The notes beneath the pieces are model-generated. The model was given only the letters and a program-made list of their open reading frames with translations. It did not search any database and was not told the DNA's origin. From a bacterium (GTDB taxonomy: Bacteria > Krumholzibacteriota > Krumholzibacteriia > LZORAL124-64-63), in contig PIVY01000002.1 of assembly GCA_003353795.1 (NCBI GenBank), forward strand, positions 12,552 through 76,551: a stretch of 64,000 nt of DNA. The letters run 5' to 3'. Below are positions 25,971-53,545 of the stretch, in pieces. The first letter of the stretch is position 1; each line of letters begins with the position of its first letter. Both the position numbers and the translations under genes were made by a program.

Positions 25971-25994
25971 GCGCGCTGATCGACGAATGAATCA

Positions 25995-26030
25995 GGGCCC
26001 CGGCCATCGCGGCTGGGGCCCTTCGTTCTT
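25995..26030 (+). terminator. Intrinsic terminator after proS
   Basis: GGGCCCCGGCC (25995-26005), loop ATCGC, GGCTGGGGCCC (26011-26021), then TTCGTTCTT. Confidence 0.7.
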
Positions 26031-26042
26031 GTCGGTGCGGTG

Positions 26043-37094: not shown

Positions 37095-39887
37095 TCATCG
37101 GGGGAGATGTCCGACCTCCAGTTCGTAGGTCAACCAGGTGAGGTTCGCCCCGGAATCTGCTGCGATGTGGCGGCGGCGGACCTCGCTGAGCGCGTCCCAC
37201 GCGCCGGTCAGCCCCGCGCCGCGGGTGCGTGCGAGGAACTCGCTCATGAACGCCGCCGCGGCGGCGTCCTCGATGGTCCAGCGGGCGGCGATCACGCCCG
37301 CAGCGCCGGCGTCCGTGAAGGCATCGGCGAGGGACGGTCCGGTCACGGTTCCGATCGCGTGGCCCGAGGCGCTCCGGCAACTGGAGAGCACCACCAGCTC
37401 GCAGCCGGAGAGGTCCCGGCCCAGGATGTCGGCAAAGGTGAGCCGGTCACCGACGGGATCGTGATCGGCCGGGTCGGCGGCGCAGGGCAGGTAGCTGCGG
37501 TAGGGCATCTCCGGGTCATGGGTGGCGTGGCCCGCGAGGTAGATCATGCGGGCCCGGGGCAGGTGCTCGAGGATGGCCTGCTTGCGGGCGGCGGCGTCCA
37601 TCAGCAGCACGGGGTCGGGCAATCGCGCGGCGGCCAGCTCGGCCTCGACCCGGACGTACGGCAGGGAGCGGAGCGATGGGCGCTCGCGCTTCAGGGACGA
37701 CGAAAGCTCCGGCACGCCGACCACGCAGCTCAGGCGGTTGTCGCTTGCCGCGGTGGGCCCGTCGTCCACGAGCCGCAGGTAGGCCGTCTGCCAGCGCGCC
37801 GCGAGGGGCTGATAGTCCGCCGGATCGCCGAGATTGCAGGCCTCGAGCGCCAGCGGATCCACTGCTGCGGTGGTGGCGATGAGCAGGCGGCCGCCCGTGT
37901 CGGCCCGCACCCAGTCCGGCATGAGAACCTCGGTGACCTCGGCGAGCTCTCGCGCCAGCTCGCGGGATACGGGCGCGTGCGGCGTGGCTACCCCCTCGGC
38001 GAGGCGTAGAGGTACCACTGCCAGCAGGGGCGCCACGGCGTTCGCCGGGATCGAGTCGCAGGCGACGCTGCCGTCGATGATCTGCCAGCGGAGCACCTGG
38101 TCGCCGAGCCGGGCATACACCAGCGCCCGGTCGTCGCCGGTTCGCGTCCAGTCGGCGAGCTCGTCGGCCTCGCTGCGGCCAAAGGCCAGCAGGCGCTCCA
38201 CCGTGCCGCCTGCGCCGGTGACGTGGTGGGTGGTCGCGTATCGTCGGAGTTGTCGCCACGCCAGTTCGACGGCGAGGCCGCCGCGCGGATCGTCGGCGAA
38301 GTGGCGGTGGAGCTGCTCACGGAATCCGTCGAGGCGGCTCAGCATGAGGTACACCTCGACCCGCTCGCCCCAGGCCGAGAGCCTGGTCAACAGGTCGGCG
38401 AGAGCCGCGTCCGCGTGCACTGCAGCGAGGCTGGCGTCGCCCTGCAGCTCGGCGATCTGCAGCGCGAGGCGGCTAGTCTCGAAGCTCGGCGGCCCCGCGT
38501 CGACGGACCTGGCCAGGTGAATCGCGGCGCTGTCCGCCCGTCCCGCCGCCACGTGGCCCGACGCGATGATGGTGTGGAGGCGGCGGCCGTGGTCGCCGAG
38601 GCCTTCCCGCCGGACGTAGGCGAGGCCCTCGTAGGCAAGGGCGATGGCGCGGCGGTGCTCCCCCCGCTCGACGAGCCAGGATGACCAGTCGGCCAGGACG
38701 GTGGCGTAGTCGTAGTTCCGCGGCAATGAGGTCGTCAACTCGGCGAGGCACGCGTAGACCGAGTCCGCCGCGGCATGCCGACCCACGTGTGTCAGGTAGC
38801 CAGCCTGGGTGCGGAGGGTGACCGCCAGGTAGCTGGCCTGCCGCGGTTCGGCATTCAGGAGCGTGACCTGCCCGAGCAGCAGTTCGGCCCGCGGCAGTCT
38901 GCGGCCGACCAGGTCCCAGCAGCCGAGGTCAGCGTGGAAGGCGAGCCTGGCCGCCAGGAAGCGGACCTCGATGTATCCGGCGTCGAGCCGGCGCGCCACG
39001 GCCACGGCCTCGTCGTAGTGCTCGGCCGCCAGGCTGAGCTCGCCGCGACCGCGATGGTAGGCGGCCAGGATGGTGTGGATCCGGCCGGCCTGGGCGGGGA
39101 GTCGGGCTGCGAGGGCTAGTTCGAGGGCCTCGTCGGCCAGCAGCATGGCGGTGTCCCGGCGGCCGGCAGCGAGACGGTCGTCGCAGAGCGTTCCGAGCAT
39201 ATGGCTGAGCTGGGGCGTGAGTCCCGCCTCGCGAGCGAGGCGGATTCCGCGGTAGAGGTGCGCCCGCTTGCGGTGGTCCTGGCCGGCGTCGGCGGACAGT
39301 TCGACCATCCGGCTCTCGATATAGGTCTCGGACCAGGGGCAGCCGGCGAGGGAATCGGATAGGGCCTGCATGGCTCGGTACTTCTCGTCGACCGGGGCGT
39401 CGGTGGTCCGGTGGACGCGCATCACCTCATTCTTGAGGCGGGTCACGCGCAGGCCTTCGCTCGTCGGGTGCTCGCGCAGGTAGCGGACCAATGTCTGTGG
39501 ACCCTGCGAGTGACCGCGGTCGGCGACGATGGCGGCCAGGCGTTCGATGGCCGGCATCGTCTGCGCCAGTGACGATTCGTAGGCTGCGAGAGAGGTGTCG
39601 TCGATCGAGTCGATGATCAGGCCGACGTGGTCGATGAGCTGATGCGCATCGAGCGCGTCGCAGACCGCGGCGAGCTCGTCGTCGGTGCCGGAGACCAGGG
39701 CGTCGGCGAGGCGGGGGTCGAGGTTGGGCGCATGGCGGATCAGGATCGCGCCGGGAGCTTCGGCACCGGTGAGGCGCATGAGGACGATCACGGCCACGAC
39801 GACCACGATCGACGCGGCGGCGATCGACCATTTCGAAAGGGAACCGTGCCGGTGGGTGAAGGCCATCATCACGGGGTCACGGTTCAC
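37095..39887 (-). CDS. Membrane-anchored TPR-like / CHAT-domain (caspase-fold) protease
   Basis: GTG 39887 overlaps the anti-sigma stop (GTGA). There is one N-terminal TM (SIAAASIVVVVAVIVLMRL) with basic residues before it. About 590 aa of helical repeats follow. The C-terminal CHAT domain carries the His/Cys dyad contexts MIYLAGHATH and LVVLSSCRSASG. Confidence 0.85.
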   Translation of the reverse strand: MNRDPVMMAFTHRHGSLSKWSIAAASIVVVVAVIVLMRLTGAEAPGAILIRHAPNLDPRLADALVSGTDDELAAVCDALDAHQLIDHVGLIIDSIDDTSLAAYESSLAQTMPAIERLAAIVADRGHSQGPQTLVRYLREHPTSEGLRVTRLKNEVMRVHRTTDAPVDEKYRAMQALSDSLAGCPWSETYIESRMVELSADAGQDHRKRAHLYRGIRLAREAGLTPQLSHMLGTLCDDRLAAGRRDTAMLLADEALELALAARLPAQAGRIHTILAAYHRGRGELSLAAEHYDEAVAVARRLDAGYIEVRFLAARLAFHADLGCWDLVGRRLPRAELLLGQVTLLNAEPRQASYLAVTLRTQAGYLTHVGRHAAADSVYACLAELTTSLPRNYDYATVLADWSSWLVERGEHRRAIALAYEGLAYVRREGLGDHGRRLHTIIASGHVAAGRADSAAIHLARSVDAGPPSFETSRLALQIAELQGDASLAAVHADAALADLLTRLSAWGERVEVYLMLSRLDGFREQLHRHFADDPRGGLAVELAWRQLRRYATTHHVTGAGGTVERLLAFGRSEADELADWTRTGDDRALVYARLGDQVLRWQIIDGSVACDSIPANAVAPLLAVVPLRLAEGVATPHAPVSRELARELAEVTEVLMPDWVRADTGGRLLIATTAAVDPLALEACNLGDPADYQPLAARWQTAYLRLVDDGPTAASDNRLSCVVGVPELSSSLKRERPSLRSLPYVRVEAELAAARLPDPVLLMDAAARKQAILEHLPRARMIYLAGHATHDPEMPYRSYLPCAADPADHDPVGDRLTFADILGRDLSGCELVVLSSCRSASGHAIGTVTGPSLADAFTDAGAAGVIAARWTIEDAAAAAFMSEFLARTRGAGLTGAWDALSEVRRRHIAADSGANLTWLTYELEVGHLPR

Positions 39888-40744
39888 TCATCACCGTGAC
39901 GCGCGAGGATGGCCGCCGCGCGCGCGGCAACGGCCGATGGCGCGTGTCCGGCAAGCTGCTGGAGTGTCGGCAGGGCGTCGTCGGCATGGCCCAGGTCCAG
40001 CTGCACGATGGCCAGGTTCAGCAGCGTGGCTGGCTCCGTGTCGCCCGCCGCGATGGCGTCCTGTAGGAGAGCCTGCGCCCGTTCGAACTCTCCGCCGCGG
40101 TAGGCGACCACGGCGGCTGCCACAAGGACGGTCTCCGCGTCGGGGTAGCGCCGCAGGGCGTCCGTGGCAAAGGTGCGGGCGGTGGAGACCTCGTCCAGGG
40201 CGAGGTAGCCGCCGATCAGCCACATCGCGGCCGAGGGGTCGTTTGCCGAGTCGTGGTAGCGGTCGGCCAGGGCCTGCACGGAGGCCACGAGCGCCGAGTC
40301 TTCGGCGATGCCGCGCAGCGCCGGGCCGGCCTCGGGTTCGCCGACGGCGCCGGGGAAGACCATGGCGCCACCGTGCCGATCGGCCAGGACCCCGGCGATG
40401 GGGCCGACCAGTTCCGGCGCCAGCGGCGGCGGGTCGACGACGGGCGATACGATCAGGAACACCAGCACTGCGGCCATTGGCAGTCCCACGATCGCCGCCC
40501 AGCGCCGACGGGCCACGCGGGGTCTGACGCTGCCGCTCGTGCTGGCCAGAATGGTCGCCACCATCGAGGCCGGCGCGGCGAGCCCCTTCCGGGCGCGGAA
40601 TTCACGGCTCGTCGCCTCCGCCTCGAATACCGCATCCCGGCAATGCCGGCAGGACGCGAGGTGATCGCGTTGCCCTCGGCTCAGGCCGGACTCGCCGTGA
40701 TCGGCCAGCCGCGCCAGGAGTGCCGGGGACAGGTGCACGTTCAC
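39884..40744 (-). CDS. Zinc-binding (HxxxCxxC) anti-sigma factor with one TM and an extracytoplasmic TPR domain
   Basis: GTG 40744 overlaps the sigma stop (GTGA); the track N-terminal 230 codons are discarded. The ZAS motif is HLASCRHC. The TM is WAAIVGLPMAAVLVFLIVSPVV. The C-terminal TPR-like repeats are ..EFERAQALLQDAIAAGD..LNLAIVQLDLGHADDALPTL. Confidence 0.8.
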   Translation of the reverse strand: MNVHLSPALLARLADHGESGLSRGQRDHLASCRHCRDAVFEAEATSREFRARKGLAAPASMVATILASTSGSVRPRVARRRWAAIVGLPMAAVLVFLIVSPVVDPPPLAPELVGPIAGVLADRHGGAMVFPGAVGEPEAGPALRGIAEDSALVASVQALADRYHDSANDPSAAMWLIGGYLALDEVSTARTFATDALRRYPDAETVLVAAAVVAYRGGEFERAQALLQDAIAAGDTEPATLLNLAIVQLDLGHADDALPTLQQLAGHAPSAVAARAAAILARHGDE

Positions 40745-41640
40745 GACTTTGCCTCCAGCCCGAGGACGAGACGGCCGGCGCTGACGCCGTCGGCGACGCC
40801 GAAGGCCTTGCGGAGCTTCCGCAGGGCCCGTTCGACCACGGTGTAGGCCTGCCGCTGGTTCTTCAGCTTCATTTCCGACGCGATCTGGCGGGCCGACAGG
40901 TTGCGGCCGAAGCGCATGGCCAACGCCTGGCGCTCCTGCTCGTCGAGGCGGGCGAGTTCCGCGCGCATCCTGCTGAGCAAGTGGTCCCGCTCGTCGGTGT
41001 GCGACTCCGCCTCCGGCTCGATCTCGACGGTTCGGGACGAGGCCTCGTAGCGCACATGGTCCACGTACTCGAGCCAGCGACCCGAGGGCACGCCGAGGCG
41101 GTGGGCCTGGCGGTCGAAGCGCAGTCGACGGCGCGCACGGTGGTCCAGCTGTCCGTCCATGTCCGAGAGCAACGACAGGAAGTCTTCGTAGTCGAGCCGT
41201 GCGCCTTCCGATTGCATCCGGCCGTAGACCGCTTTCGACGGCCAGCCCTGGACGAAGAACAGCTCGAAGACCCGCTGGTCCGTGGCCGGACGGCGCAGGA
41301 TCGGTGCGGGCAGGCGCACACGGCCGCGTTCGCGGCGGAGGCGGTCGACGGCCGCGTTGCGGACGATGAGTACCAGCCAGGTCCCGAAGGACGAGCGGCC
41401 GTCGAACTGCTCGAGCTTGCCGCGGAAGAGGCACTCGAATACGTCGGCCACGACGTCGCGGGCGAGGTCGTGATCATGGAGATGTCTATGGGCGACGGAT
41501 AGGGCGAGGCCCGTATAGTCCGTCACGAGGTCGCGCCAGGCCTCCGTGGAGCCAGAGACGGCAGACTGGACCTGGGCGAGATCCTGGTGTCCTTGCAAGA
41601 GTGGTATCGCTCCGGTAGCTGCGGGGTTCGGCGCCGGCAA
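40741..41640 (-). CDS. Sigma-70 family (ECF-like) sigma factor with an unusually long sigma2-sigma4 spacer
   Basis: The sigma2 region is WRDLVTDYTGLALSVAHRHL..ARDVVADVF...FGTWLVLIVRNAAVDRLRRE. The sigma4 HTH is LDEQERQALAMRFGRNLSARQIASEMKLKNQRQAYTVVERALRKLRKAF. The start is assigned to TTG 41640 (uncertain). Confidence 0.8.
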   Translation of the reverse strand: MPAPNPAATGAIPLLQGHQDLAQVQSAVSGSTEAWRDLVTDYTGLALSVAHRHLHDHDLARDVVADVFECLFRGKLEQFDGRSSFGTWLVLIVRNAAVDRLRRERGRVRLPAPILRRPATDQRVFELFFVQGWPSKAVYGRMQSEGARLDYEDFLSLLSDMDGQLDHRARRRLRFDRQAHRLGVPSGRWLEYVDHVRYEASSRTVEIEPEAESHTDERDHLLSRMRAELARLDEQERQALAMRFGRNLSARQIASEMKLKNQRQAYTVVERALRKLRKAFGVADGVSAGRLVLGLEAKS

Positions 41641-41660
41641 ACGCCGTGGTTCCGCGACGA

Positions 41661-41689
41661 TTGTAACACATACTCGCCGTGCGTGTAAT
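41661..41689. promoter_or_regulatory. Promoter-like element of ambiguous orientation
   Basis: Plus strand reads TTGTAA (41661-66), 17 nt, TGTAAT (41684-89). The minus strand reads ATTACA, 18 nt, TACAAT pointing at the sigma gene. Both readings are plausible. Confidence 0.4.
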
Positions 41690-41695
41690 CCTCGG

Positions 41696-41784
41696 GACTC
41701 GTCCGTCTATAGCTACCATAGTTGGGGGATGAGGGAGAGACGCCGTCGGGACCGTCCAGCCATCGGGGCTGGGCGGTCCTTTTT
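41696..41784 (+). ncRNA. Candidate ~90-nt small RNA (promoter-like element to intrinsic terminator)
   Basis: It is defined only by the plus-strand reading of the 41661-41689 promoter and the strong terminator at 41749-41784. No convincing ORF is present, since MRERRRRD.. has no spacing to its G-run. Confidence 0.25.
41749..41784 (+). terminator. Strong intrinsic terminator with no annotated plus-strand gene upstream
   Basis: GGACCGTCCAGC (41749-41760), loop CATCGGG, GCTGGGCGGTCC (41768-41779). This gives 12 bp with one G-U, then TTTTT (41780-41784). Confidence 0.7.
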
Positions 41785-41816
41785 GGTATCGGCACGGGAA
41801 TCGATCCTGATTGGTC

Positions 41817-41845
41817 TTGACGGATCGCGCTCGTTGTCGTAATAT
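41817..41845 (+). promoter_or_regulatory. Sigma70-type promoter of the trp leader/operon
   Basis: TTGACG (41817-41822), 17-nt spacer, TAATAT (41840-41845). It sits in a locally AT-rich patch, ~50 nt upstream of the leader ATG. Confidence 0.6.
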
Positions 41846-41896
41846 TAAACATCAAATTCAAGCGCGCCGAGGTGCGCGCCCCGTCCGGAACCCGGA

Positions 41897-41986
41897 ATGG
41901 ACCCGATGACCCGCATCCGCAGCATCCTGATCGCGACCGACAGCCACCGTTATTGGTGGTCCTGGCGCGATCTGCCTTGCGGATAG
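41897..41986 (+). CDS. trpL: Tryptophan operon leader peptide (29 aa from ATG 41897, or 26 aa from in-frame ATG 41906)
   Basis: It encodes MDPMTRIRSILIATDSHRYWWSWRDLPCG*. UGG codons lie at 41954, 41957 and 41963. The stop TAG (41984-86) is embedded in attenuator segment 2. The ORF is too short for the ORF track. Confidence 0.65.
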   Translation: MDPMTRIRSILIATDSHRYWWSWRDLPCG

Positions 41987-42057
41987 GGGTCGTTCCGGAC
42001 ATCGAGACCAGCTGACAGACAGCCACCGGAACCGAAGCAGACCCGCTATCCGCAAGG
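41908..42057 (+). promoter_or_regulatory. Attenuator alternative pairings (segments 1, 2, 3)
   Basis: Segment 2, CCTTGCGGATAGGGGTC (41975-41991), pairs with segment 3, GACCCgCTATCCGCAAGG (42040-42057), over 17 bp with one bulge. Segment 1, GACCCGCATCCGCA (41908-41921), is a degenerate copy of segment 3 and can also pair with segment 2 (7 + 5 bp). Confidence 0.7.
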
Positions 42058-42072
42058 AGCGCGGGTTTTTTT
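42041..42072 (+). terminator. Attenuator terminator (segments 3:4)
   Basis: ACCCGC (42041-46) pairs with GCGGGT (42061-66). The upper stem is TCC-GCAA-GGA with a GNRA loop. A T7 run follows at 42066-42072, 27 nt before the trpE SD AAGGAG (42099-42104). Confidence 0.8.
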
Positions 42073-42111
42073 GTGCCCGGCAATGGCGCCGGGCGAACAA
42101 GGAGCGACCCC

Positions 42112-43590
42112 ATGGTCACGCCCGGCCTCTCGGACTTCCTCGATCTCGCACGCGACGGACGCACGGCGCCCCTGCGCCGCCGCATCCCCGCCGACCTGGA
42201 GACGCCGGTCTCTGCGTATCTCAAGCTGGCGCCCCTCGGTGCGGTCTGTCTGCTGGAGAGCGTGGAGCAGGGGATCCAGGTGGGGCGCTACTCGTTCATC
42301 GGCCTGGCGCCGCGATGCGCGGTCACCATCGAGGGCGACGCGGTCACCGTTGAGCGGGGCGGCGTCACCGAAACCAGCGACCTCGATCCCGCCGCGCCCT
42401 TCGCCGCCATCCAGGCCGAGCTCGAGCGGGCGCTGGACCTGGCCACCGGTGATCTGCCCGGCCCTCTCGGCGCGGCCGTGGGCTACCTCGGCTGGGAAAC
42501 CGTCCGCTACTTCGAGCGTGTGCCGCTGCCCACCGAAGGCCACGACGGTCTGCCCGATGCGCGCTTCGTGTTCCCGTCGCAGCTGGTGGTGTTCGACCAC
42601 GTGAAGAGCGAGATCGAGGTGGCGGTGCTGCCGCCGACCGAGCTTGCCGCGGAACCGGGATACGCGGCGGCGCAAGAGCACCTCGACCGTCTGCTCGCCG
42701 CCCTGCGCAGCCCGCTGCCGGCCGGCGCCATGCCCGAGCCGTGCGACCCGCTGGAGCCGGCGTCGCCCGAGATCCCGCGCGAACGTTTCGAGGCCTCCGT
42801 CGAGACCGCTCGCGAGCACATCCTGGCCGGCGACGCCTTCCAGATCGTGCTCTCGCAGCGTCTGCGTGGCCGCACGGCGGCGCATCCGTTCACGGTCTAC
42901 CGCGCGCTGCGCATCCTGAATCCTTCGCCCTACCTCTTCTACCTCGACTTCGGCGACTCCCAGCTCATCGGTTCGTCGCCCGAATCGCTGGTGGCCCTGG
43001 AGGGCGACCGCGCCCAGGTCTGCCCCATCGCCGGCACGCGGCCTCGTGGCGCCACGCCGGCCGAGGACAGCGAACTGGAAGCCGAGCTGCTGGCCAGCGA
43101 GAAGGAGAGGGCCGAACACCTGATGCTGGTGGACCTCGGCCGCAACGACCTCGGTCGCGTCTGTCGGCCGGGGACGGTCCGTCCGTCGAGCTTCCAGCAG
43201 GTGGAGCGCTACAGCCACGTCATGCACCTGGTCTCGCGGGTGGACGGTCGATTGCGGGAAGGTCTGGACGGCTGGGACCTGCTGCGCGCCACCTTCCCCG
43301 CGGGCACTCTCAGCGGCGCGCCGAAGATTCGCGCCATGGAGATCATCGGGGAGCTGGAGGACCGTCGGCGCGGTCCCTACGGCGGCGCGGTGGGCTACTT
43401 CGCGCCCGGCGGCGACCTCGACCTGTGTATCGCCATCCGCACCCTCGTGATGCAGGGCGACCGCTGGTGGGCCCAGGCCGGCGCCGGCATCGTGGCCGAC
43501 AGCGATCCCGCCTTCGAGTACGAGGAGACCCTGCACAAGCTGCAGGCCGTGACCCGCGCGGTGACCCGCGCCGAAGGAGGTCTGGAGTGA
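42112..43590 (+). CDS. trpE: Anthranilate synthase component I
   Basis: ATG 42112 lies 7 nt after AAGGAG; the track start 42073 falls inside the terminator. Family stretches are LLESVEQG..GRYSFIG, SPYLFYLDFGD, GTLSGAPKIRAMEII and RGPYGGAVGYF. Confidence 0.95.
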   Translation: MVTPGLSDFLDLARDGRTAPLRRRIPADLETPVSAYLKLAPLGAVCLLESVEQGIQVGRYSFIGLAPRCAVTIEGDAVTVERGGVTETSDLDPAAPFAAIQAELERALDLATGDLPGPLGAAVGYLGWETVRYFERVPLPTEGHDGLPDARFVFPSQLVVFDHVKSEIEVAVLPPTELAAEPGYAAAQEHLDRLLAALRSPLPAGAMPEPCDPLEPASPEIPRERFEASVETAREHILAGDAFQIVLSQRLRGRTAAHPFTVYRALRILNPSPYLFYLDFGDSQLIGSSPESLVALEGDRAQVCPIAGTRPRGATPAEDSELEAELLASEKERAEHLMLVDLGRNDLGRVCRPGTVRPSSFQQVERYSHVMHLVSRVDGRLREGLDGWDLLRATFPAGTLSGAPKIRAMEIIGELEDRRRGPYGGAVGYFAPGGDLDLCIAIRTLVMQGDRWWAQAGAGIVADSDPAFEYEETLHKLQAVTRAVTRAEGGLE

Positions 43591-44180
43591 TGTTGCTCAT
43601 GATCGACAACTACGACAGCTTCACCTACAACGTGGTGCAGGCGCTCGGCGAACTGGGCGCCGAGGTGACCGTGCGGCGCAACGACGCCGTCTCGCCGGAC
43701 GAGGCGGCGGCCCTGGCGCCGGCGGGCCTCATCATCTCGCCGGGCCCCGGCACGCCCGCCGACGCCGGCGTCTCCGCCGCGCTCATCGAGCAGTTTGCCG
43801 GACGCGTTCCGGTGCTCGGCATCTGTCTCGGCCACCAGACCATCGTCGAGGTCTTCGGCGGACGGATCCAGCGGGCCGAGCGGGTGATGCACGGCAAGAC
43901 CAGCCCGGTCTACAACGACGGCCGCACCATCTACTCCGGTCTGGGCAATCCGTTCACGGCCACCCGGTACCACTCGCTCATCGCCGTGGAGGGCGACCTG
44001 CCCGAAGCGCTCGAGATCAGCGCCTACACCGCCGAGGGCGAGATCATGGGCGTGCGCCATCGCCAGCTCGCCATCGAGGGCGTGCAGTTCCACCCCGAAT
44101 CGGTGATGACGCCCGAGGGCGCCCAGCTCCTTGGCAACTGGCTGCAGATCTGCACCGCGACGGGAGCGGTGGCGACATGA
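43590..44180 (+). CDS. trpG: Anthranilate synthase component II (glutamine amidotransferase)
   Basis: MLLMIDNYDSFTYNVVQ.. The triad context is GICLGHQ plus GVQFHPES. The start overlaps the trpE stop (TGATG), and GAAGGAGG lies upstream. Confidence 0.95.
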   Translation: MLLMIDNYDSFTYNVVQALGELGAEVTVRRNDAVSPDEAAALAPAGLIISPGPGTPADAGVSAALIEQFAGRVPVLGICLGHQTIVEVFGGRIQRAERVMHGKTSPVYNDGRTIYSGLGNPFTATRYHSLIAVEGDLPEALEISAYTAEGEIMGVRHRQLAIEGVQFHPESVMTPEGAQLLGNWLQICTATGAVAT

Positions 44181-45223
44181 ACGAGAATGTGATGAACGAC
44201 CTCCTCGCCGGACGTAGCCTCGATGCCACCGGCGCCGAGGCCCTCATGGGCGACATCATGACCGGCGCTCTGGACGCGGCTCGTCTCGGCGCCGTGCTGG
44301 CGGCGCTCCAGGTTCGGGGCGTCACGGCCGTCGAGCTCGGCGGCTTCGCCCGGGGCATGCGGGCCCGCGCTGTACCGGTCACCGCCGACTGCATCGACCG
44401 CGCCATCGACACCTGCGGCACCGGCGGCGACGGTCAGGGCACCTTCAACATCTCCACGGCCGCGGCGCTGGTGGCCGCCGCTGCGGGTGCGCCGGTGGCC
44501 AAGCACGGCAATCGCGCGGCCAGTTCCCTGTGCGGATCGGCCGATGTGCTCCAGGCCCTGGGCGTGAATCTGGACCTGGAGCCGGCCGCTCTGGGCCGCC
44601 TGCTCGACGAGGTCGGCATCGCCTTCCTGTTCGCACCGAATCACCACCCGGCCATGCGCCATGCCGTGCCGGTGCGGCGGTCGCTGGGCGTGCGCACGGT
44701 GTTCAACCTGCTGGGGCCGCTGACCAATCCAGCCGGCGTCCGTCGACAACTCCTCGGGGTGTACGCGCCCGAACTGGTGGACCTCATGGCCGGCGCCCTG
44801 CTCGAACTGGGCGCGGTGCGGGCGCTGGTGGTTCACGGCCACGACGGTCAGGACGAACTGGCGCTCACCGGCGAGACGCTGGTGGCCGAGATCGCGGACG
44901 GCAGCGTGACGCGACACACGGTGACGCCCGAGGATGCGGGACTGCAGCGGTGCGCCGCGGCCGACCTGGCCGGCGGTGACGCCGCGGCCAATGCCGACCT
45001 GATGCGCGGCGTGCTGACCGGCGAACCCGGACCGCGTACCGACGCCGTCCTTTTCAACGCGGGAGGCGCGCTCATGGCCGCCGATCTCGCCATCGATTTG
45101 CGCGAGGGCGTGGGTCTCGCGCGCGCGGCCGTGGGCGACGGCCGCGCCGCGACGCTGCTGGCCGATCTGGCCGCGGCTACCCACGACCTCGCGCGTGAAT
45201 CCAACGTGGGAGGCGAATCGTGA
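44177..45223 (+). CDS. trpD: Anthranilate phosphoribosyltransferase
   Basis: CGTGGDG.GTFNISTAAA..VAKHGNRA is the signature. ATGA overlap with trpG. Confidence 0.95.
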   Translation: MNENVMNDLLAGRSLDATGAEALMGDIMTGALDAARLGAVLAALQVRGVTAVELGGFARGMRARAVPVTADCIDRAIDTCGTGGDGQGTFNISTAAALVAAAAGAPVAKHGNRAASSLCGSADVLQALGVNLDLEPAALGRLLDEVGIAFLFAPNHHPAMRHAVPVRRSLGVRTVFNLLGPLTNPAGVRRQLLGVYAPELVDLMAGALLELGAVRALVVHGHDGQDELALTGETLVAEIADGSVTRHTVTPEDAGLQRCAAADLAGGDAAANADLMRGVLTGEPGPRTDAVLFNAGGALMAADLAIDLREGVGLARAAVGDGRAATLLADLAAATHDLARESNVGGES

Positions 45224-46026
45224 ACGGATTCCTGGAACGCGTCCGGGCCCAGAAGGAGGCCGAGGTCACCGTCGGTCAAGCCGGCCGCAGCCTGGCCGAT
45301 CTGCGCGCGGGGGTCGCCGACATGGCGCCGTGCCGCGATTTCCGCGGGGCGCTCACCGCGGGCAGCGACCGCATCATCGCCGAGGTGAAGCGCCGGTCGC
45401 CCAGCGTGCCGCAGTTCCTGCGACGGGAGCCGCCCGCCGAACTGGCCGCTCTTTACCACGAGGCCGGCGCCGCCGCGCTGTCGCTGGTGACCGACCGGGC
45501 CAATTTCGGCACGGGTCCGGCCGACATCGCACCCATGCGAGCGGCGGCGCCCCTGCCGCTCATCGCCAAGGACTTCATCATCGACCCCTGGCAGGTCCTG
45601 GCCTTGCGCGCCGCGGGCGCCGACGCCGTGCTACTCATCGCTCGATTGCTGGAGCCGAACCAGCTGGCCGACCTCCACGGACTCGCGCACGAGCTGGGTC
45701 TCGCCGCACTGGTGGAATGCCACACGGCGGGCGACCTGCGCGCCGCCCTCGCCGGCGGCGCCGACCTGGTGGGATTCAACAATCGAAACCTCGATACCTT
45801 CGAGGTCTCCCTGGACGTGAGCCGAGCCCTCCTGCCACAGGTGCCCGTGGGTTGCGCAGCCGTGGTGGAAAGCGGGCTGGCCGGACGGGCCGAGGTGGCG
45901 GCGCTGCAGGGCCTGGGCGCCACGGCGTTCCTGGTCGGCGGGTCGCTGCTCCAGTCGGATGATCCGGCCGCGATGCTGCGGGCCCTGCGAGGCGCCGACG
46001 ATTCGCGCCGCGAGGAGGTGTCGTGA
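45220..46026 (+). CDS. trpC: Indole-3-glycerol phosphate synthase
   Basis: The GTG start overlaps the trpD stop (GTGA). Family stretches are IIAEVKRRSPS, LSLVTD..F.G, LIAKDFIIDPWQV and VGFNNRNL. Confidence 0.93.
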   Translation: MNGFLERVRAQKEAEVTVGQAGRSLADLRAGVADMAPCRDFRGALTAGSDRIIAEVKRRSPSVPQFLRREPPAELAALYHEAGAAALSLVTDRANFGTGPADIAPMRAAAPLPLIAKDFIIDPWQVLALRAAGADAVLLIARLLEPNQLADLHGLAHELGLAALVECHTAGDLRAALAGGADLVGFNNRNLDTFEVSLDVSRALLPQVPVGCAAVVESGLAGRAEVAALQGLGATAFLVGGSLLQSDDPAAMLRALRGADDSRREEVS

Positions 46027-46682
46027 TGCGACCGCTCGTGAAGATCTGCGGCCTGACCCGGCCCGAGGACGCGCGCCTCTGCCGCGACGCCGGCGCCGAT
46101 CTGCTCGGCGTCATCTTCGCCGATAGTCCGCGCCAGGTAACCGTTGGACAGGCCGCCGACATCCGCGCCGCCTGTAGCCACGCGCCCCTGGTCGGCGTGT
46201 TCACCGACGGAACGCCCACGGCCATCGCCGAGGTGGTGGCCGCCGTGGGGCTCGACCTGGTGCAGTTGCACGCCTGCGACGACCCTGCTCGCTGGGAGGC
46301 GGTGGGCCGGGCGTCCGGAGTGTCGGTGCTGCCGGCGGTCACGGCCGACCGTGCCGACGACGCGGTCTCCGCCATGCTCGCGCGGCCCGACCTCTTGCTG
46401 GCGGGCCTGCTCCTCGACCTCCCCAAGCGTACCCGCGACGCCGGATCCGACGGCCGGGTCACATTGATCGAGACGGCGCGGCGTTGCCGCGATCGCGGTA
46501 TCCGCGTCATGCTTGCCGGCGCGCTCGATGCTGCTACCGTGCCGCTCGCCATGCGCGAGGTGAAACCGTTTGGGTTGGACGTTTGCCGCGGCGTGGAATC
46601 GGCGCCCGGTGTGAAGGATCCCGAACTGGTCGCACGATTCCTCGCCGCCGTCGATCATCCGGAGGTGGATCATGTCCACTGA
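46023..46682 (+). CDS. trpF: Phosphoribosylanthranilate isomerase
   Basis: [24 protein letters not shown]. The start is GTG 46023 (GTGA overlap) or ATG 46026. Confidence 0.9.
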
Positions 46683-47850
46683 GATTACTCGCGCCGGCCG
46701 CTTCGGCCCTTTCGGCGGACAGTACGTGCCGGAGACCCTCATGCCGGCGATCACCGAACTGGCCGCCGCTCACATCGAGGCGCTCGCCGACCCGGCGTTC
46801 GCCGCGGAACTCGATGCTCTGCTGGCCGACTTCGCCGGCCGGCCCACCCCGCTGTATCGCGCGCGCCGACTCGAGTCGGTGTTGCCCGGGGAAGCGCAGG
46901 TGTGGCTCAAGCGGGAAGACCTGGTCCACACCGGCGCCCACAAGCTCAACAACTGCCTCGGTCAGGTGCTGCTGGCGCGGCGCATGGGCAAGCGGCGCAT
47001 CATTGCCGAGACCGGCGCCGGCCAGCATGGCGTTGCCACCGCCGCGGTATGCGCCCACTTCGGCCTGGAGTGCACCGTCTACATGGGCGAGACCGACATG
47101 CAGCGGCAGCGTCCCAACGTGCAGCGCATGCGGCTGTTCGGCGCCGAGGTCCGGCCCGCGCTCACCGGCAGCCGCACCCTCAAGGACGCCACCAGCGAGG
47201 CCATCCGCGACTGGGTGGCCTCGGTGGCGACGACCCACTACATCATCGGATCGGTGGTCGGTCCGCATCCGTATCCGTCGCTGGTGGCCGACTTCCAGGC
47301 GGTGATCGGTCGCGAGGCGCGCGAGCAGATCTTCGCCGCCGCCGGCCGCCTTCCCAGCCACGCCCTGGCCTGCATCGGCGGCGGCAGCAATGCCATGGGA
47401 TTGTTCCGCGGCTTCCTCGATGACGGCGACGTCCGGCTGGTCGGCGTGGAGGCCGGCGGCGGTCCCGAGGGGCATGCTGCGACTCTCGGAAAGGGCGATC
47501 CCGGGGTGCTGCACGGCACGCTCTCGCTCCTGCTACAGGATCAGGACGGCCAGGTCGCGCCGGTGCACTCCATTTCCGCCGGCCTCGACTACCCGGGGGT
47601 CGGCCCCCAGCTGGCGCACCTCAAGGACAGCGGCCGGCTCGCCGTGGCCAGCGCCACCGATGCCGAGGCGCTGGACGCGCTGCGGTCGCTCTGCCGGCTC
47701 GAAGGCATCTTGCCGGCCCTGGAAACGGCCCACGCTCTGGCGCACCTGCAGACGCTCGCTGCCGATCCCGATGCCGATCTCATCGTGGTGAACCTTTCCG
47801 GGCGCGGCGACAAGGACCTCGACCACTTGCCCCCGGAGGTGTCGGCATGA
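46672..47850 (+). CDS. trpB: Tryptophan synthase beta chain
   Basis: [15 protein letters not shown] and [16 protein letters not shown] (the PLP Lys context) plus GGGSNAMG. It overlaps trpF by 11 nt, and GGAGGTGG lies upstream. Confidence 0.97.
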
Positions 47851-48650
47851 CCGCTCTCGAACGCGCGTGCCGCGACCGCCGCCAGCGAGGCGAGAAGGCG
47901 CTGGTGCCGTTCCTCACCGCGGGCTTCCCGGACGAGCGCACGTCGCTGGAACTGCTGGCCGCCTGCGCGCGGCGCGGCTGCGAGGTGGTGGAGATCGGCG
48001 TGCCGTTCTCCGACCCCGTGGCCGACGGCCCCGTGATCCAGCAGGCCAGCCAGGCCGCCCTGGCCGGCGGCATGACCCTGCGCCGAGCCCTCGACCTGGT
48101 GACCGAACTGAAGGACGAGGCGGTGCAGCCGGTGATGATGACCTACCTAAATCCGGTGCTGCGCCTGGGTCTGGACGAGTTCGCACGGCGGTCTGCGCGC
48201 GCCGGTTGCGCCGGCGTGATCGTGCCCGACCTGAGCAGCGAGGAAACGGCGCCGCTGCGCGACGCCCTCTCCGGCGAAGGCGTGGCCCTCGTCGACCTGG
48301 TGGCACCGACCACCACCGAGGATCGCATGGCCGCGATCACCGCCACCGCCGGCGGCTTCCTCTACCTGGTGGCGGTGGCTGGCGTGACCGGCACGACCAG
48401 CGCGAATGCTGCCGACCTGCAGTCCTTCACCGACCGCGTCCGCCGGCACACCGACCTGCCGCTCTACGTCGGCTTCGGCATCGACGGCGCCGTGAAGGCC
48501 CGCGAGGCCGTCCAGGCCGCCGACGGCGCCATCGTGGGCAGTGCGCTCATCCGGCGCCTGCTCGACAACCCGGATTCCGGCGGCGTGACAGCCGTCCTCG
48601 ACCTGGTCGACGAAATGCTCGCCGCCCTTTCCCGGAGGACCACCTCATGA
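47847..48650 (+). CDS. trpA: Tryptophan synthase alpha chain
   Basis: [11 protein letters not shown].., [17 protein letters not shown] and [17 protein letters not shown] overlap with trpB. Confidence 0.95.
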
Positions 48651-49699
48651 TGATCGTGACCATGCAGCCCGGCGCCTCGGTGGCCCAGATCGGCGCCGTG
48701 TTGCGGCACTGTCAGGAGCGCGACCTGCGACCGGTACCCAGCCACGGAACCGAGCGCACGGTGATCGGCGTCATCCATGCCGATCAACGCACCGACCTGT
48801 CCGCCGTGGCGTCCCTGCCGGGCGTGGACCAGGTCACGCCCGTGTCGGCCGCGCTCCAGCTGGTGAGCCGCGAGTTCCGCGACGAACCCACCGTGGTGCA
48901 CGTCGGCGGCGTGGCCATCGGCGGCCCCGAGTTCGTGGTCATGGCGGGCCCGTGTTCGGTGGAGACCGAGGCGCAAATCAATGCCTGTGCCCGTCAGGTG
49001 GGCGCCTGCGGCGGTCGCATCCTGCGAGGTGGCGCCTACAAGCCGCGCACGTCGCCGTACAGCTTTCAGGGACTGGGCGAGGAGGGGCTGCAACTCTTGA
49101 CCGCGGCCGGCCGCGCGGTGGGATTGCCCACGGTCACCGAGGTCATGCACCCCGATCTGGTGGAGACAGTGGCGAGGTATGCGGATATCCTGCAGATTGG
49201 CGCCCGCAACGTGCAAAACTACGCGTTGTTGTCGGCAGTGGGCAGGGTGCGCAAGCCCGTCCTTCTCAAGCGTGGGCTCATGACCACCATCGAGGAACTG
49301 CTCATGGCGGCCGAGTACATCCTGGCCGGAGGCAATGGACAGGTGATCCTCTGTGAACGCGGCATCCGCACCTTCGAGACGTCCGTGCGCAACACGCTGG
49401 ACGTGTCGGCCGTGCCGGTGATCAAGAGCCAGAGTCACCTGCCGGTGATCCTCGACCCGAGCCACGCTGCCGGCAAGCGCGAGTTCGTGCCGGCGCTGGC
49501 GCTGGCGTCGCTCGCCGCCGGCGCCGACGGCATCATGGTGGAGATGCATCCGGTGCCCGAGGAGGCGTACAGCGACGGTCGGCAGAGTCTCGACTTTCCC
49601 GGCTTCGCGGCGCTCATGGATTCGTTGCGGCCCGTGGGCGCGGCCCTGGGCCGACACGTGGCCGCGGTCCGGCCCGATCTGACGGAGGCGTCTGCATGA
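48647..49699 (+). CDS. aroF: 3-deoxy-7-phosphoheptulonate (DAHP) synthase, type I-beta, with an N-terminal ferredoxin/ACT-like domain
   Basis: ATG 48647 overlaps the trpA stop (ATGA), and CGGAGGA lies upstream. The core stretches are [43 protein letters not shown] and DPSH. The first ~85 aa ([19 protein letters not shown]...VTPV) are an extra domain. The track ORF 47867-49699 is a frame chimera. Confidence 0.92.
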
Positions 49700-51024
49700 G
49701 AGCGGTGGTGCGCGGCGCCCGAGGCGTGAACGGCGAGTTGAGTCTGCCGGGCGACAAGTCCCTGGCTCACCGCGCCCTCCTCTTCGGCGCGCTGGCCGAC
49801 GGCGAGATGCGCGTACGCGGACTGCCACCCGGCGGCGACGTTGCGAGCACGCGGAGCTGTCTCGAAACTCTCGGCGCACGTTTCGAGGACATCCCCGGCG
49901 GCGTGCGCGTGCTGCCGCCCGAGTCATGGCGTACCGGCGAGACGCTCGATTGCGGCAACTCCGGCACCACGACTCGCCTGCTCGCCGGCGTGCTCGCGGG
50001 CCTCGGCCTGGCGACCACCCTTGACGGCGACGCCTCGCTTCGCCGTCGTCCCATGCGCCGCGTGGCCGATCCGTTGCGCCTGCTTGGCGCGTCGGTGACG
50101 ACCCGCGAGGACGGCTGCCTGCCCCTGATAATCGCACCGCCGCGCGACCGGCTCGACGGCATCCGCGTGGAACTGGCCGTGGCCAGCGCACAGGTCAAGA
50201 GCGCGATCCTGCTGGCGGGATTGTTCGCCACCGGTCCGACCACCGTGGTCGAGCCGGCCCTGAGCCGCGACCACACCGAGCGCATGCTCGCGGCCATGGG
50301 TGTCGACGTGCAGCGCGACGGCCTGGCGGTGACCGTTCCCGGGCGACGCGACGACGGTGCCGCTCCCCGCCTTCACGGCCTGACGCTGGACCTGCCGGGC
50401 GACATCTCCACGGCGGCATTCTACCTCGCTGCCGGCGCCATGCGGCCGGGGTCGTCGGTGATTCTCCGGGGTGTGGGGATCAACCCGTCGCGCACCGGAA
50501 TCCTGGATGCCCTTCACGGCATGGGGGCGGCCGTGAAGCTGGCCAACGAACGCACGGCCGCCGGCGAGCCCGTGGCCGATCTGGCCACCGAGAGCTCGCC
50601 CATGCGGGGCATCTCGATCGGCGGCGACCTGGTGCCGCGCCTCATCGACGAGCTTCCCATTCTCGCAGTGGCGGCCACGGCGGCCGATGGCGCCACCGAG
50701 GTACGCGACGCCGCCGAGTTGCGGCACAAGGAATCCGACCGCATCGCGACCACGGTGACCCAGCTCGCACGCCTGGGCGCCGACATCCACGAACGGCCGG
50801 ACGGTTTCACCATTCACGGTCCTTGCCGCTTGCGCGGCGCCGAGGTGGATGCCGGCGGCGATCATCGTCTGGCCATGGCATTGGCCGTGGCGGCGCTGTC
50901 GGCCGAGGGCGAAACGGTGATCTCCGGCGCGGAGGCGGCCTCGGTCTCGCATCCCGACTTCTGGTCGGACGTGGCGCGCCTCGCCGGTCCCGATGCCGTG
51001 CGCCTCGAGGAGGAGAACGCGTGA
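49696..51024 (+). CDS. aroA: 3-phosphoshikimate 1-carboxyvinyltransferase (EPSP synthase)
   Basis: [30 protein letters not shown] and DHRLAMA. ATGA overlap with aroF. Confidence 0.95.
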
Positions 51025-51875
51025 CCGTTGGCGGCGCTTCCCGCGTATACGGCCTCATCGGCGACCCCGTGGCGCACAGCCTGTCCCCGCGCCTGATGAA
51101 CGACGCCTTCGCGCGGCTGGGCATCGACGCGGTGTACGTGGCCTGGCGCCTGGCGTCCGACTACGTGGGCTCGGCCGTGGCCGGCCTCGTGACCCTGGGC
51201 GTGGCCGGCGTCAACGTGACCTACCCGCACAAGGCCGCGGTGCTGCCTCACGTGGCGTCCCGCTCCAACGCGGTCGCAACGCTGGGCGCGGCCAATGTAC
51301 TGGCCCTCGACGCCGACGGTTTCCGGGCCGAGAACACCGACGCCGGGGGGACCGCACTGGCCTTGACCGAGTTGCTCGACTGGCCGGTGACCCACCGTCG
51401 CGTGGTGATCCTCGGCGCCGGCGGCGCGGGCCGGGCGGCGGCGCTGGGCCTGCTGGTCGCGGGAGCCGAGCGCGTCGACTTCCTGGTGCGCGACCGTTCG
51501 CGTGCCGAAGCCGGACTTGTCGGCTTGCGCGCGGCTCATGAAGCGGTCGCCGTCCACGTTCTCGACAGCCGCGACGCAGCCGGGTGCCTGGACGCTGCCC
51601 ACCTCGTGGTGCAGGCCACCCCGGTGGGTCTCGACGATCCCGGCGCTGCTTCCCTAATCGACCCGGCACAGGCGCCGAACGCCGCGGGATTCGAACTGGT
51701 CTACGGCGAACGCCCCACCGCGTTCGCCGCCGCCTGGCGCGGCGCCGGTCGACCGTGTCTCGACGGACGCGATCTGCTGGCGGCCCAGGCCCACCTGGCT
51801 CTTCATGTCTGGCTGAACGACGCGCCCGACCTGGCCGACATGCGCCGGGTCATTGCGCCCGAGGAGGTCGCGTGA
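51021..51875 (+). CDS. aroE: Shikimate dehydrogenase
   Basis: GTG 51021 overlaps the aroA stop (GTGA). Family stretches are YGLIGDPVAHSLSPRLMN, GVNVTYPHK, NTDAGG and ILGAGGAGRAAA. Confidence 0.9.
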   Translation: MTVGGASRVYGLIGDPVAHSLSPRLMNDAFARLGIDAVYVAWRLASDYVGSAVAGLVTLGVAGVNVTYPHKAAVLPHVASRSNAVATLGAANVLALDADGFRAENTDAGGTALALTELLDWPVTHRRVVILGAGGAGRAAALGLLVAGAERVDFLVRDRSRAEAGLVGLRAAHEAVAVHVLDSRDAAGCLDAAHLVVQATPVGLDDPGAASLIDPAQAPNAAGFELVYGERPTAFAAAWRGAGRPCLDGRDLLAAQAHLALHVWLNDAPDLADMRRVIAPEEVA

Positions 51876-53545
51876 CCACGACGAAACGCAACGTGGTGCT
51901 CACCGGATTCATGGGCACCGGCAAGACCGCCGTCGGCCGCGTTCTGGCCGACCTGCTCGGCCGCCCCTTCTGCGATCTGGATGCGGTGATCGAGGAGGCG
52001 GCCGGCTGTCCGGTGGCCGAGATCTTCGCGGCCGAAGGCGAGGACGGTTTCCGACGCCGCGAGCGGGAGGCCGCCGCCGCGGTTGGTGCCCGGCGCGGCC
52101 TGGTGGTCGCCACTGGCGGCGGCACCCTCATCGACCCGGCCAATCGCGAGGCACTCTCCGCCGGCGGCGACCTGGTCCTCCTGACCACTGCGGCGCCCGA
52201 ACTGGCCGACCGCCTCGGCGACGGCGCCGGGCAACGCCCGCTGCTGGCTGGCCACGATGACCTGCGCGCCCGCATCGCTGAACTCCTCGCCGAGCGCGCG
52301 TCCGTCTATGCCGGCTGCGACCACGAATTCGACACGACAGCGCTCGATGCCGACGAGGCCGCCGCCCTGCTGGCTGCGCGCCTGGCCACGCCGTTGACGG
52401 AGATCGACATCCCCGTTCCCGGCGCCGCCGGTCTGCCCGTGCTCGCTGCCCGCGAGCTCACCGGATCGCGCGTGGTCACCGGCCGCGGCACGGTCTGTCG
52501 GCTCGGCGCCGAACTGCGCGACCGCGGTGTCACCGGCCGCGTGGTGCTGGTCATGCCCGAGGTGGTGCGCGATCACTACCTTCCGCGCCTGGTCGCCTCT
52601 CTCGACGCCGCCGAACTGTCGTGGGGCCTGCTGGGAATTCGCGACGGCGACCAGGAGAAGACCTTCGCCCAGGTGGAGGATCTGGTGGACGCCCTGGCCG
52701 GCCTCAGCGCCGATCGTGGCACCTGCGTGGTGGCCGTGGGCGGCGGCGTGACCGGCGACCTGGTGGGCTTCAGCGCCGCGGTCTACATGCGCGGCGCGGC
52801 CCTGGCCATGGTGCCGACCACCCTGCTGGCCCAGGTCGACGCCCACATCGGCGGCAAGACCGGCGTCAACGGTCGCCGCGTCAAGAACCTGGCCGGCTGT
52901 TTCCATCCGCCCATTCTGGTGGTGGCCGACCCCTGCATGCTGGCCACCCTGCCGGACCGTGAGCTGGCCGGCGGCATGGCCGAGGTGGTCAAGTCGGCGC
53001 TCATCGGCGACCCCGCGCTCTTCGACCAGCTCGAGGCGGCGCTTGTCGATCCGGCCGAGAATCGCGACGGCGATCCGCGCCGCGACCCAGAACTGCTCGA
53101 GACCTGTGTGGCGGCTTGCGCCGCCGTGAAGGGCGGCGTGGTCAGTCGCGATCCCTGGGAACTGGGGGAGCGGCGCTTGTTGAACCTGGGCCACACTCTC
53201 GGCCATGCCCTCGAAGCCCAGAGCGCCTACGGTCTGAGCCATGGCGAGGCCGTGTCCATCGGCACCGTGGCGGCCCTGCAAGTGGCCGTGGCGCGCGGCG
53301 CCGCCGAGGCCGATCTCCTCGACCGTACCCGCCGCCTGCTGCAGGCCTGCGGGCTGCCCACCACACCGCCCGAATACGATGCCGCCGACCTCCTCTCGCG
53401 ATTGCATCTGGACAAGAAGCGGCGTGACGGTCGACAGTTCTTCGTGCTGCCACTCGCCGCGGGCGACGTGGTGGTCGTGGACGACGTCGACGATGACGAG
53501 GCCCTCGCGGCCCTGGCCAGGGAGCAAGCGTGCGCATCCTCGTGA
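51872..53545 (+). CDS. aroKB: Bifunctional shikimate kinase / 3-dehydroquinate synthase fusion
   Basis: GTG 51872 overlaps the aroE stop (GTGA). The N-terminal kinase has the GFMGTGKT Walker A and DGFRRRE. The C-terminal DHQ synthase has [32 protein letters not shown] and [12 protein letters not shown]. Confidence 0.9.

Follow-up and report, generated by a model that had tools for sequence, protein, structure and literature searches.

In a 64-kb stretch of DNA with 68% GC (hereafter the window), taken from a metagenome-assembled genome (MAG) of the uncultured candidate phylum Krumholzibacteriota in the FCB group, the leader upstream of trpE is very probably a ribosome-mediated transcription attenuator, predicted from its sequence and from folding models to sense charged tRNA-Trp through a short leader peptide. 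A sequence-only reading of this DNA had proposed a leader with Trp codons and alternative 1:2, 2:3 and 3:4 pairings as the attenuator of trpE, and the proposal is now supported by thermodynamics, by conservation in 13 relatives and by compensatory changes in both the terminator and the antiterminator. Sequence, energy or comparison establish the elements of the leader, pairings among them that exclude one another, the conservation and covariation of these, and a fixed position of the Trp codons with respect to the RNA segment that can take part in either structure. As a sequence family the element is new, and it extends the record of a well-known mechanism to a new phylum.

Elements and alternative pairings of the trpE leader

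The region upstream of trpE was read from 41500 to 42400. Since the neighbouring sigma-70-family gene (40741..41640, minus strand) is divergent, 41641-42111 is a true intergenic gap, and the end of the element at 42111 given in the sequence-only reading is right because the ATG of trpE lies at 42112. The features of the leader, including its open reading frame (ORF) and Shine-Dalgarno (SD) sequence, are as follows.

41817-22 and 41840-45, plus strand: sigma-70-type promoter, -35 TTGACG and -10 TAATAT with a 17-nt spacer, read in the sequence and by consensus scan
41862-41879, plus strand: hairpin GCGCGC-CGAGGT-GCGCGC in the 5' untranslated region (5'-UTR), present in every fold, just after the predicted transcription start and 5' of the leader SD
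41883-91, plus strand: outer extension of segment 1, GUCCGGAAC, which pairs with 41992-42000
41894..41897, plus strand: leader SD, GGAA, 8 nt 5' of ATG 41906
41906..41986, plus strand: trpL-like leader ORF of 26 codons, MTRIRSILIATDSHRYWWSWRDLPCG before the stop, from the sequence and from homologous ORFs in relatives
41908..41924, plus strand: segment 1, GACCCGCAUCCGCAGCA, overlapping codons 2-7 and, by its G, the start codon
41954-59 (UGG UGG) and 41963-65 (UGG), plus strand: Trp codons 17, 18 and 20, three within four codons (...YWWSW...), read in the sequence
41975-91, plus strand: segment 2, CCUUGCGGAUAGGGGUC, with the extension GUUCCGGAC to 42000; its partner is segment 1 or segment 3
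42026-32 and 42040-57, plus strand: segment 3, made of the extension CCGGAAC and of GACCCGCUAUCCGCAAGG; antiterminator partner of segment 2 and also the 5' arm of the terminator
42040-51 with 42056-67, plus strand: intrinsic terminator (3:4), GCAA loop (42052-55), then T7 (42066-72), from scan and fold
42075..42094, plus strand: all-GC hairpin of 7 bp, GCCCGGC-AAUGGC-GCCGGGC, between the T-run and the trpE SD, from the fold
42099-104, plus strand: trpE SD, AAGGAG, read in the sequence and kept as AGGAG in relatives
42112, plus strand: ATG start of trpE, from the sequence and the Pfam gene call

The promoter described in the sequence-only reading (TTGACG, 17 nt, TAATAT) is present, and a consensus scan of the 2-kb region returned it among three promoter-like sites, against 0.2 expected. 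Segment 2 (CCTTGCGGATAGGGGTC, 41975-91) has the reverse complement GACCC-CTATCCGCAAGG, with respect to which segment 3 (GACCCGCTATCCGCAAGG, 42040-57) has a single extra G; the 17-bp pairing with one bulged G that had been reported, with the leader's stop codon (UAG, 41984-86) inside segment 2, was thus recovered in full. The same holds for the intrinsic terminator, whose T-run lies 27 nt before the AAGGAG of trpE and 39 nt before its ATG, apart from an internal loop in the stem that had been only implicit in the sequence-only reading. The 5'-UTR hairpin may serve as a 5'-end stabiliser or a spacer, and in most relatives a GC hairpin, unrelated in sequence, occupies the corresponding position. 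A hairpin like that at 42075-42094 occurs at the same place in L161, L162, L165, L170 and L083, though not in all relatives.

The 231-nt leader (41850-42080) folds at -109.5 kcal/mol, compared with -82 ± 4.7 kcal/mol in dinucleotide shuffles (z = -5.8). Among the alternative structures, the extended 1:2 hairpin (41883-42002) reaches -67.6 kcal/mol. The two structures whose energies the sequence-only reading had proposed to compare are the 2:3 antiterminator (41970-42060), with 17 bp and the bulged G45 plus the 7-bp GUUCCGG/CCGGAAC, at -43.4 kcal/mol, and the 3:4 terminator (hairpin 42040-67, folded as the stretch 42036-42072), at -17.6 kcal/mol. In the minimum-free-energy fold, the free RNA adopts 1:2 plus the terminator. 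The T7 of the terminator is the sole run of at least 7 T on both strands of the window; the only other run of at least 6 T in the 64 kb is at 2170 on the plus strand.

These elements can be arranged into a mechanism. Transcription would begin about 7 nt past TAATAT, near 41852, and a ribosome would load at GGAA/AUG 41906 and read the 26-codon leader. When Trp is scarce, the ribosome would stall with its A site on the UGG at 41954, 41957 or 41963, with its leading edge at or just before segment 2 (41975-42000) and with segments 1 and 2 kept apart. Because the stalled ribosome would separate segment 2 from segment 1, segment 2 could pair with the newly made segment 3 (42026-57), which would block 3:4 and allow the polymerase to enter trpEGDCFBA. 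When Trp is plentiful, the ribosome would reach the stop codon and cover segment 2, so that 3:4 would form and transcription would terminate at T7, giving a transcript of about 220 nt. If the leader is not translated, segment 1, start codon included, would pair with segment 2 and the terminator would form; given that segment 1 overlaps the start codon, this 1:2 pairing would shut off the initiation site as well. The transcription start, the stalling of the ribosome, the efficiency of termination and the kinetic order of folding are the parts of this scheme that we infer.

The effect of ribosome position was modelled at folding equilibrium with an assumed footprint from -18 to +14 around the A site. 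Masking this footprint on any of the three UGG codons allowed 2:3 to form and abolished the terminator, and masking it at the stop codon brought the terminator back. When the A site was moved along the leader, the mean probability that the terminator pairs was 0.00-0.14 (mostly about 0) at codons 2-21 and 0.96-0.97 from codon 22 to the stop. Because of this jump at codon 22, Trp codons 17, 18 and 20 would be the last pause sites that still permit antitermination.

Conservation and covariation among relatives

The TrpE of the window is nearest to those of Candidatus Krumholzibacteriia MAGs, with 76% identity to JAWKQQ010000008. Regions upstream of trpE were fetched from a GTDB genome (L001), from metagenome contigs L081-L083 and others, and from eleven contigs among L161-L172 (TrpE 67-87% identical). 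Thirteen relatives, with TrpE 58-87% identical to that of the window, were used, which together with the window form an alignment of 14 sequences (A1).

A leader ORF 25-33 codons long, in which 3-4 Trp codons are clustered (WWSW, WWWW, WWYW or WWPWW), was found 5' of trpE in 13 out of 13 relatives, and all 13 also have a hairpin followed by a T-run between this ORF and trpE. The leader ORFs are absent as called genes in the gene tables of the relatives. A GGA[AG] motif lies 3-9 nt 5' of the leader ATG in all 14 sequences, and a promoter of the form TTGAC[AG]-17/18-TAnnnT lies 43-88 nt 5' of it in 13 of them (12 relatives plus the window). The leader peptides of the relatives read as follows.

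L161: MTRDRKPTSNVIGHHYWWSWRALPCG
L162: MTLDRSSATIAPAHRYWWSWRSLPCG
L163: MTFDRSIRIHVTASWRWWSWRGLSCG
L165: MTLTRGSANHPTSLQYWWWWRSLSCG
L170: MNLDRCSLNAMTSTTWWAWQSLSSG
L171: MTHIQGSTLATSSTNWWYWPGLSSG
L172: MSRSHGSPARIHTTRWWYWRGLSSG
L166: MTLDRGIASPTTTLRNWWWWHGVPAGRGRGPDE
L167: MTRDLIISTVISAPSTWWWWHGALAGRGRGPDG
L001: MTRLGICTAALGTTGWWWWRSVPVDGGRRPD
L169: MARLSIRTAALGTTSWWWWRSVTADGGRRPV
L168: MNRKSRGLDMATFTTGWWWWAGMPVDGGRRPVV
L083: MTRISLRSDIFAGRQWWPWWIMRRADGSCGSAL

In the alignment of orthologous upstream regions, a check that the sequence-only reading had proposed, TGGTGG and the next TGG are invariant columns across the 14 sequences, and covariation is seen in the stems of both the terminator and the antiterminator. 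Conservation covers the Trp codons, the initial ATGACCC and segment 2 at the nucleotide level, and the peptide outside the Trp cluster varies freely. This free drift of the peptide, next to conserved Trp codons and RNA segments, fits an RNA and ribosome-positioning element better than a functional peptide. The gene upstream of the leader also varies among relatives (ADI, PAS kinase, FGE-sulfatase and others), and therefore the element appears to travel with trpE.

The comparison also settles the start of the leader, for which the sequence-only reading had offered ATG 41897 or ATG 41906. The long form from 41897 to 41986 would encode MDPMTRIRSILIATDSHRYWWSWRDLPCG before the stop, with the second ATG in frame. 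Only the window has the ATG at 41897, which arises inside the SD region, and the relatives all align at ATGACC with GGA[AG] 5' of it. Therefore, the leader is 41906-41986, with 26 amino acids and a conserved start; the ORF and its three UGG codons stand as described, and the start at 41897 does not.

The 12-bp terminator is paired in 94.5% of alignment cells, compared with 49% or less in slid controls, and compensatory changes affect 5 of its 12 pairs; it is also the consensus structure returned by RNAalifold. For the 17-bp core of the antiterminator, 88% of cells are paired and 4 of the 17 pairs are changed on both sides, for example AU/GC/CG at columns 94/169 and AU/GC at columns 92/171. The slid controls of the antiterminator, which were measured over all 24 pairs of 2:3, gave 43% or less. 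Its 7-bp extension is less kept (62% in the same alignment).

In the group formed by L166 and L167, segment 2 has GGGUCGGGG in place of GGAUAGGGG; segment 3 has CGACCC in place of CUAUCC, and segment 4 has changed along with them. The change in segment 2 deletes the stop codon, and the ORF ends about 20 nt later. Therefore, the stop codon need not keep its exact position, but the complementarity among the three segments is essential.

The placement of the Trp codons was modelled in all 14 sequences on the RNA that lies 3' of the ribosome (starting at A site + 15) as far as the terminator loop, before segment 4 exists, with no pairing across the ribosome. Such truncated transcripts were used because the equilibrium probability of the terminator in the full-length RNA is uninformative for relatives with terminators of -25 to -33 kcal/mol. 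Whichever Trp codon occupies the A site, the terminator's 5' arm is predicted to be paired upstream in 14 out of 14 sequences, with probabilities of 0.66-0.91. Taking as the release point the position where arm pairing falls below 60% of its value on the Trp codons, the modelled pairing drops 3 codons past the last Trp in 11 of the sequences and 5-6 codons past it in the other 3.

An 11-nt direct repeat, GACAGCCACCG, had been put forward in the sequence-only reading as a source of CCACC partners for the UGGUGG codons. Both copies are present (41939-49 and 42018-28), but the second copy is absent from relatives and its role as a partner of the UGG codons was not upheld. A local CCACC/UGGUGG hairpin, considered in the same alignment, was paired in 65% of cells, equal to its slid control, showed no covariation and was rejected.

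Counter-evidence and rival explanations

Several observations weigh against the attenuator as described. The leader SD (GGAA) is weak, and in the window the stem of the terminator is interrupted by a 2x2 internal loop (U47/A48 vs G59/C60) at positions where relatives pair. The covariation of 1:2 in the 14-sequence alignment is no higher than in shuffles. The ribosome model is limited by its assumed footprint and by its treatment of folding at equilibrium, and a version that let pairs form across the ribosome left 5 of the 14 sequences ambiguous and was replaced by the downstream-only model given above. In 7 of the 13 relatives (L165, L170, L171, L172, L001, L168 and L169), the full-length terminator, at -25 to -33 kcal/mol, beats the antiterminator at any ribosome position; given this greater stability at equilibrium, those elements would have to act kinetically, through the order of synthesis. 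Finally, the trp promoter may also drive attached genes of the shikimate pathway, for which control by Trp only would be physiologically awkward.

The lack of covariation bears on segment 1, which the sequence-only reading had placed at 41908-21 and which reaches 41924. Its proposed sequestering of segment 2 corresponds to the minimum-free-energy pairing, and the potential for this pairing is conserved, with 80.6% of cells paired compared with 45% or less in slid controls, but it finds no echo in covariation, and segment 1 is for this reason likely, though unproven. The free RNA of several relatives keeps 2:3 paired.

The short ORF and its terminator could instead be a small gene or a small RNA in its own right, yielding a functional micropeptide or a trans-acting RNA, with trpE transcribed separately. 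The ORF has its own promoter, SD and terminator, its length is conserved (25-26 codons in the 8 closest sequences), and the trp attenuator RNA and peptide of Sinorhizobium act in trans (PMC6614838, PMC7298713). However, a consensus scan found no promoter-like site in the 39 nt between the T-run and the trpE ATG, the peptide outside the Trp cluster is unconserved and its conserved C-terminus coincides with RNA segment 2, and the element always adjoins trpE despite differing upstream genes. A role in trans would, moreover, add to attenuation rather than replace it, and we give an independent gene only a slim chance. It is also very improbable that the switch is real but set by an RNA-binding protein or a ligand, in a TRAP-like, T-box-like or riboswitch-like manner, with incidental Trp codons. 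All 14 sequences have these Trp codons unchanged, in every case in the reading frame of an ATG that follows an SD and at a fixed distance from segment 2, even though alternative structures alone leave the sensor unspecified and TRAP or T-boxes govern the trp operons of other lineages (PMC6614838). No Rfam family was detected at the gathering score anywhere in the 64 kb, and at E-values up to 10 over 41000-43000 nothing relevant was found, with neither RF00513 (Trp_leader) nor RF00230 (T-box) among the matches. A motif search of the leader did not find the T-box core motif, and Rfam and motif searches returned no riboswitch signature. For TRAP, for which 9-11 (G/U)AG triplets spaced 2-3 nt apart and overlapping the antiterminator were taken as the criterion, the leader has no run of at least 5 spaced triplets and only 5 GAG/TAG triplets per 260 nt.

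A leader acting mainly on translation, through ribosome delivery or reinitiation, or on mRNA stability rather than on termination draws some support from the GC hairpin between the T-run and the trpE SD, and leader genes have been proposed to boost downstream translation (PMC4833913). The leader stop codon, however, lies 125 nt from the trpE ATG, which is too far for reinitiation, and the hairpin with its T-run is kept in all relatives with covariation, which leaves this explanation highly doubtful. The TGG cluster on its own is weak evidence, since the six frames of the GC-rich window contain 14 such clusters (compared with 2.4 in mononucleotide shuffles), and one could imagine that a T-run, a TGG cluster of the out-of-frame type and an inverted repeat rich in GC came together by chance. 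The comparative data are decisive on this point: recurrence in 13 out of 13 relatives with compensatory changes effectively refutes a chance origin, and the uniqueness of the T7 run in the 64 kb and the z-score of the fold also speak against it, so that its probability is practically negligible.

Known systems, distribution and the trp-aro cluster

Leader-peptide attenuation of trp operons is a textbook mechanism. As established for trpL of E. coli and Salmonella (RF00513), the window has a short ORF in its leader with Trp codons next to each other, four segments that can pair as 1:2, 2:3 and 3:4 followed by a U-run, energies ranked alike (1:2 before 2:3 before 3:4), a stop codon at a position where a ribosome that terminates covers segment 2, and the same set of downstream genes. 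The two nevertheless differ in several respects. The window leader has no sequence or structure match to RF00513 at E-values up to 10; it has 26 codons, whereas E. coli trpL has 14, and the window and its relatives have 3-4 Trp codons rather than 2. These codons are apical, placed between segments 1 and 2, whereas those of E. coli trpL are in segment 1; segment 1 of the window overlaps the start codon (the conserved ATGACCC), unlike in E. coli; and the antiterminator of the window (17 + 7 bp) is much longer. The attenuator of Bacillus subtilis also relies on a terminator/antiterminator switch 5' of trpE, and its aromatic supraoperon likewise holds trp and aro genes in one co-directional cluster, but its sensor is the TRAP protein bound to (G/U)AG repeats, which are absent from the window leader, and its gene order differs from that of the window, where trp comes first and then aro. 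Vitreschak and colleagues are said to have predicted, in 2004, attenuators of the leader-peptide type in some Bacteroidetes/Chlorobi and Thermotogales.

Experiments support attenuation by trp leaders in E. coli, Corynebacterium glutamicum and Streptomyces venezuelae (PMC4833913), as well as in Sinorhizobium (PMC6614838). The rnTrpL/peTrpL system (trpL) of Sinorhizobium meliloti is, like the window leader, a ribosome-dependent attenuator with Trp codons 5' of trpE(G), and it releases a small leader RNA (PMC6614838). Its peptide has 14 amino acids, it controls trpE(G) only, and trans functions of both RNA and peptide have been demonstrated (PMC6614838, PMC7298713); the window leader, in contrast, precedes the whole trp cluster and possibly the aro genes. 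The trpL of C. glutamicum and the trpE leader of S. venezuelae share with the window a high GC content and a Trp leader peptide with a terminator 5' of trpE (PMC4833913), but these actinobacterial leaders come from an unrelated phylum, and no similarity of sequence to them was seen, though they were not aligned with that of the window. A survey from 2010 listed leader-peptide systems as known only from Proteobacteria and Actinobacteria and added its own case from Firmicutes (PMC2965389).

In the literature searched, we found no record of leader peptides in Krumholzibacteria. The sequence-only reading had gone further and suggested that leader-peptide attenuation was undocumented in lineages of this kind, a claim of novelty that was too strong, both for a textbook mechanism and in view of candidates with Trp leaders and terminators in MAGs of several other phyla, including Bacteroidetes. 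In a crude screen of 153 diverse trpE loci, 22 had an ORF with a Trp cluster together with a terminator. Independent Trp-cluster leaders with terminator-like hairpins 5' of trpE were seen in loci labelled Bacteroidetes (L015, 2759-2839), Victivallales (L009, 2769-2870), Spirochaetales (L006, 2651-2818) and Desulfobulbia (L034, 448-513). Further independent leaders occur in L136 (2133-2207), L106 (1050-1130) and, with two tandem terminators each, L084, L086 and L092; metagenome contigs are among the loci. Example peptides from the screen include NSWWWHLS, NNWCWW and NSWWWP. Four Stenotrophomonas loci (L031, L041, L118 and L120) carry an ORF of the RRWWRWWP type and failed the terminator screen. 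Given these Trp leaders in MAGs of several phyla, the design appears to be widespread and patchy.

A covariance model built from the 14-sequence alignment recovers only the Krumholzibacteria-type clade. Weak matches (E 0.02-0.2) in L106, L136, L092, L081 and L084 fall on the Trp leaders of those loci, which we regard as analogues and not as family members. Within the window, a match of 28 bits at 25990-26090 on the minus strand was rejected as a second attenuator: it is a GC hairpin (GGGCCCCAGCC-GCGA-TGGCCGGGGCCC) between convergent genes, that is, a generic terminator, and is a false positive because the ORF part of the model is deleted and only a plain hairpin is matched.

Downstream of the leader lies a complete trpEGDCFBA set in this order (42112-48650), followed by genes of the shikimate pathway.

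42112-43590, plus strand: trpE (Pfam)
43590-44180, plus strand: trpG (Pfam)
44177-45223, plus strand: trpD (Pfam)
45220-46026, plus strand: trpC (Pfam)
46023-46682, plus strand: trpF (Pfam)
46672-47850, plus strand: trpB (Pfam)
47847-48650, plus strand: trpA (Pfam)
48647-49699, plus strand: aroF (DAHP synthase)
49696-51024, plus strand: aroA
to about 51875, plus strand: aroE, start not delimited
to 53545, plus strand: aroK-aroB fusion, start not delimited
to 55073, plus strand: aroC, start not delimited

These 12 co-directional genes form a trp-aro cluster of about 13 kb (42112-55073) headed by the attenuator. Stop and start codons overlap or abut at trpE/G, trpA/aroF and aroF/aroA, and the ORF coordinates do likewise at several other junctions; a simple consensus scan found no promoter-like site or convincing terminator inside the cluster. 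From its sequence, the cluster looks like an aromatic supraoperon headed by a Trp attenuator.

On the other side of the leader, the sigma-70-family ORF (40741..41640) and an ORF for a TPR protein (39884..41434), both on the minus strand, share about 690 nt in different frames, and therefore at least one of their starts must be mis-set; a gene for a CHAT-domain protein (37095..39887) comes next after the TPR ORF on the same strand. About 35 nt 5' of the trp promoter, at 41748-41785 on the plus strand, there is a strong terminator-like hairpin of 14 bp (GGGACCGTCCAGCC-ATCGG-GGCTGGGCGGTCCT) followed by TTTTT. No plus-strand gene precedes it, its neighbour being the divergent sigma-70-family gene, and a search within the window did not identify it as a member of a repeat family. 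This hairpin may act as an insulator against antisense read-through or mark the end of a small RNA.

The analysis provides a confident mechanistic annotation for a previously unannotated leader of 260 nt and a 26-codon gene in Krumholzibacteriota. The 14-sequence alignment, with its covarying helices, defines an RNA family absent from Rfam, which could seed a model for the annotation of MAGs. These organisms appear to couple transcription and translation tightly enough for attenuation, and they appear to use sigma-70 consensus promoters and Shine-Dalgarno initiation. A more speculative and rather unlikely extension is that the attenuator is the single transcriptional gate of the 12-gene supraoperon or that, alternatively or additionally, the leader RNA of about 220 nt or the 26-amino-acid peptide acts in trans, like rnTrpL/peTrpL. 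If the attenuator were the single gate, the level of the entire shikimate pathway would depend, in this lineage, on the charging of tRNA-Trp alone. The understanding of the attenuation mechanism itself is unchanged, and the main interest of the element lies in a possible control of the attached shikimate-pathway genes by Trp sensing.

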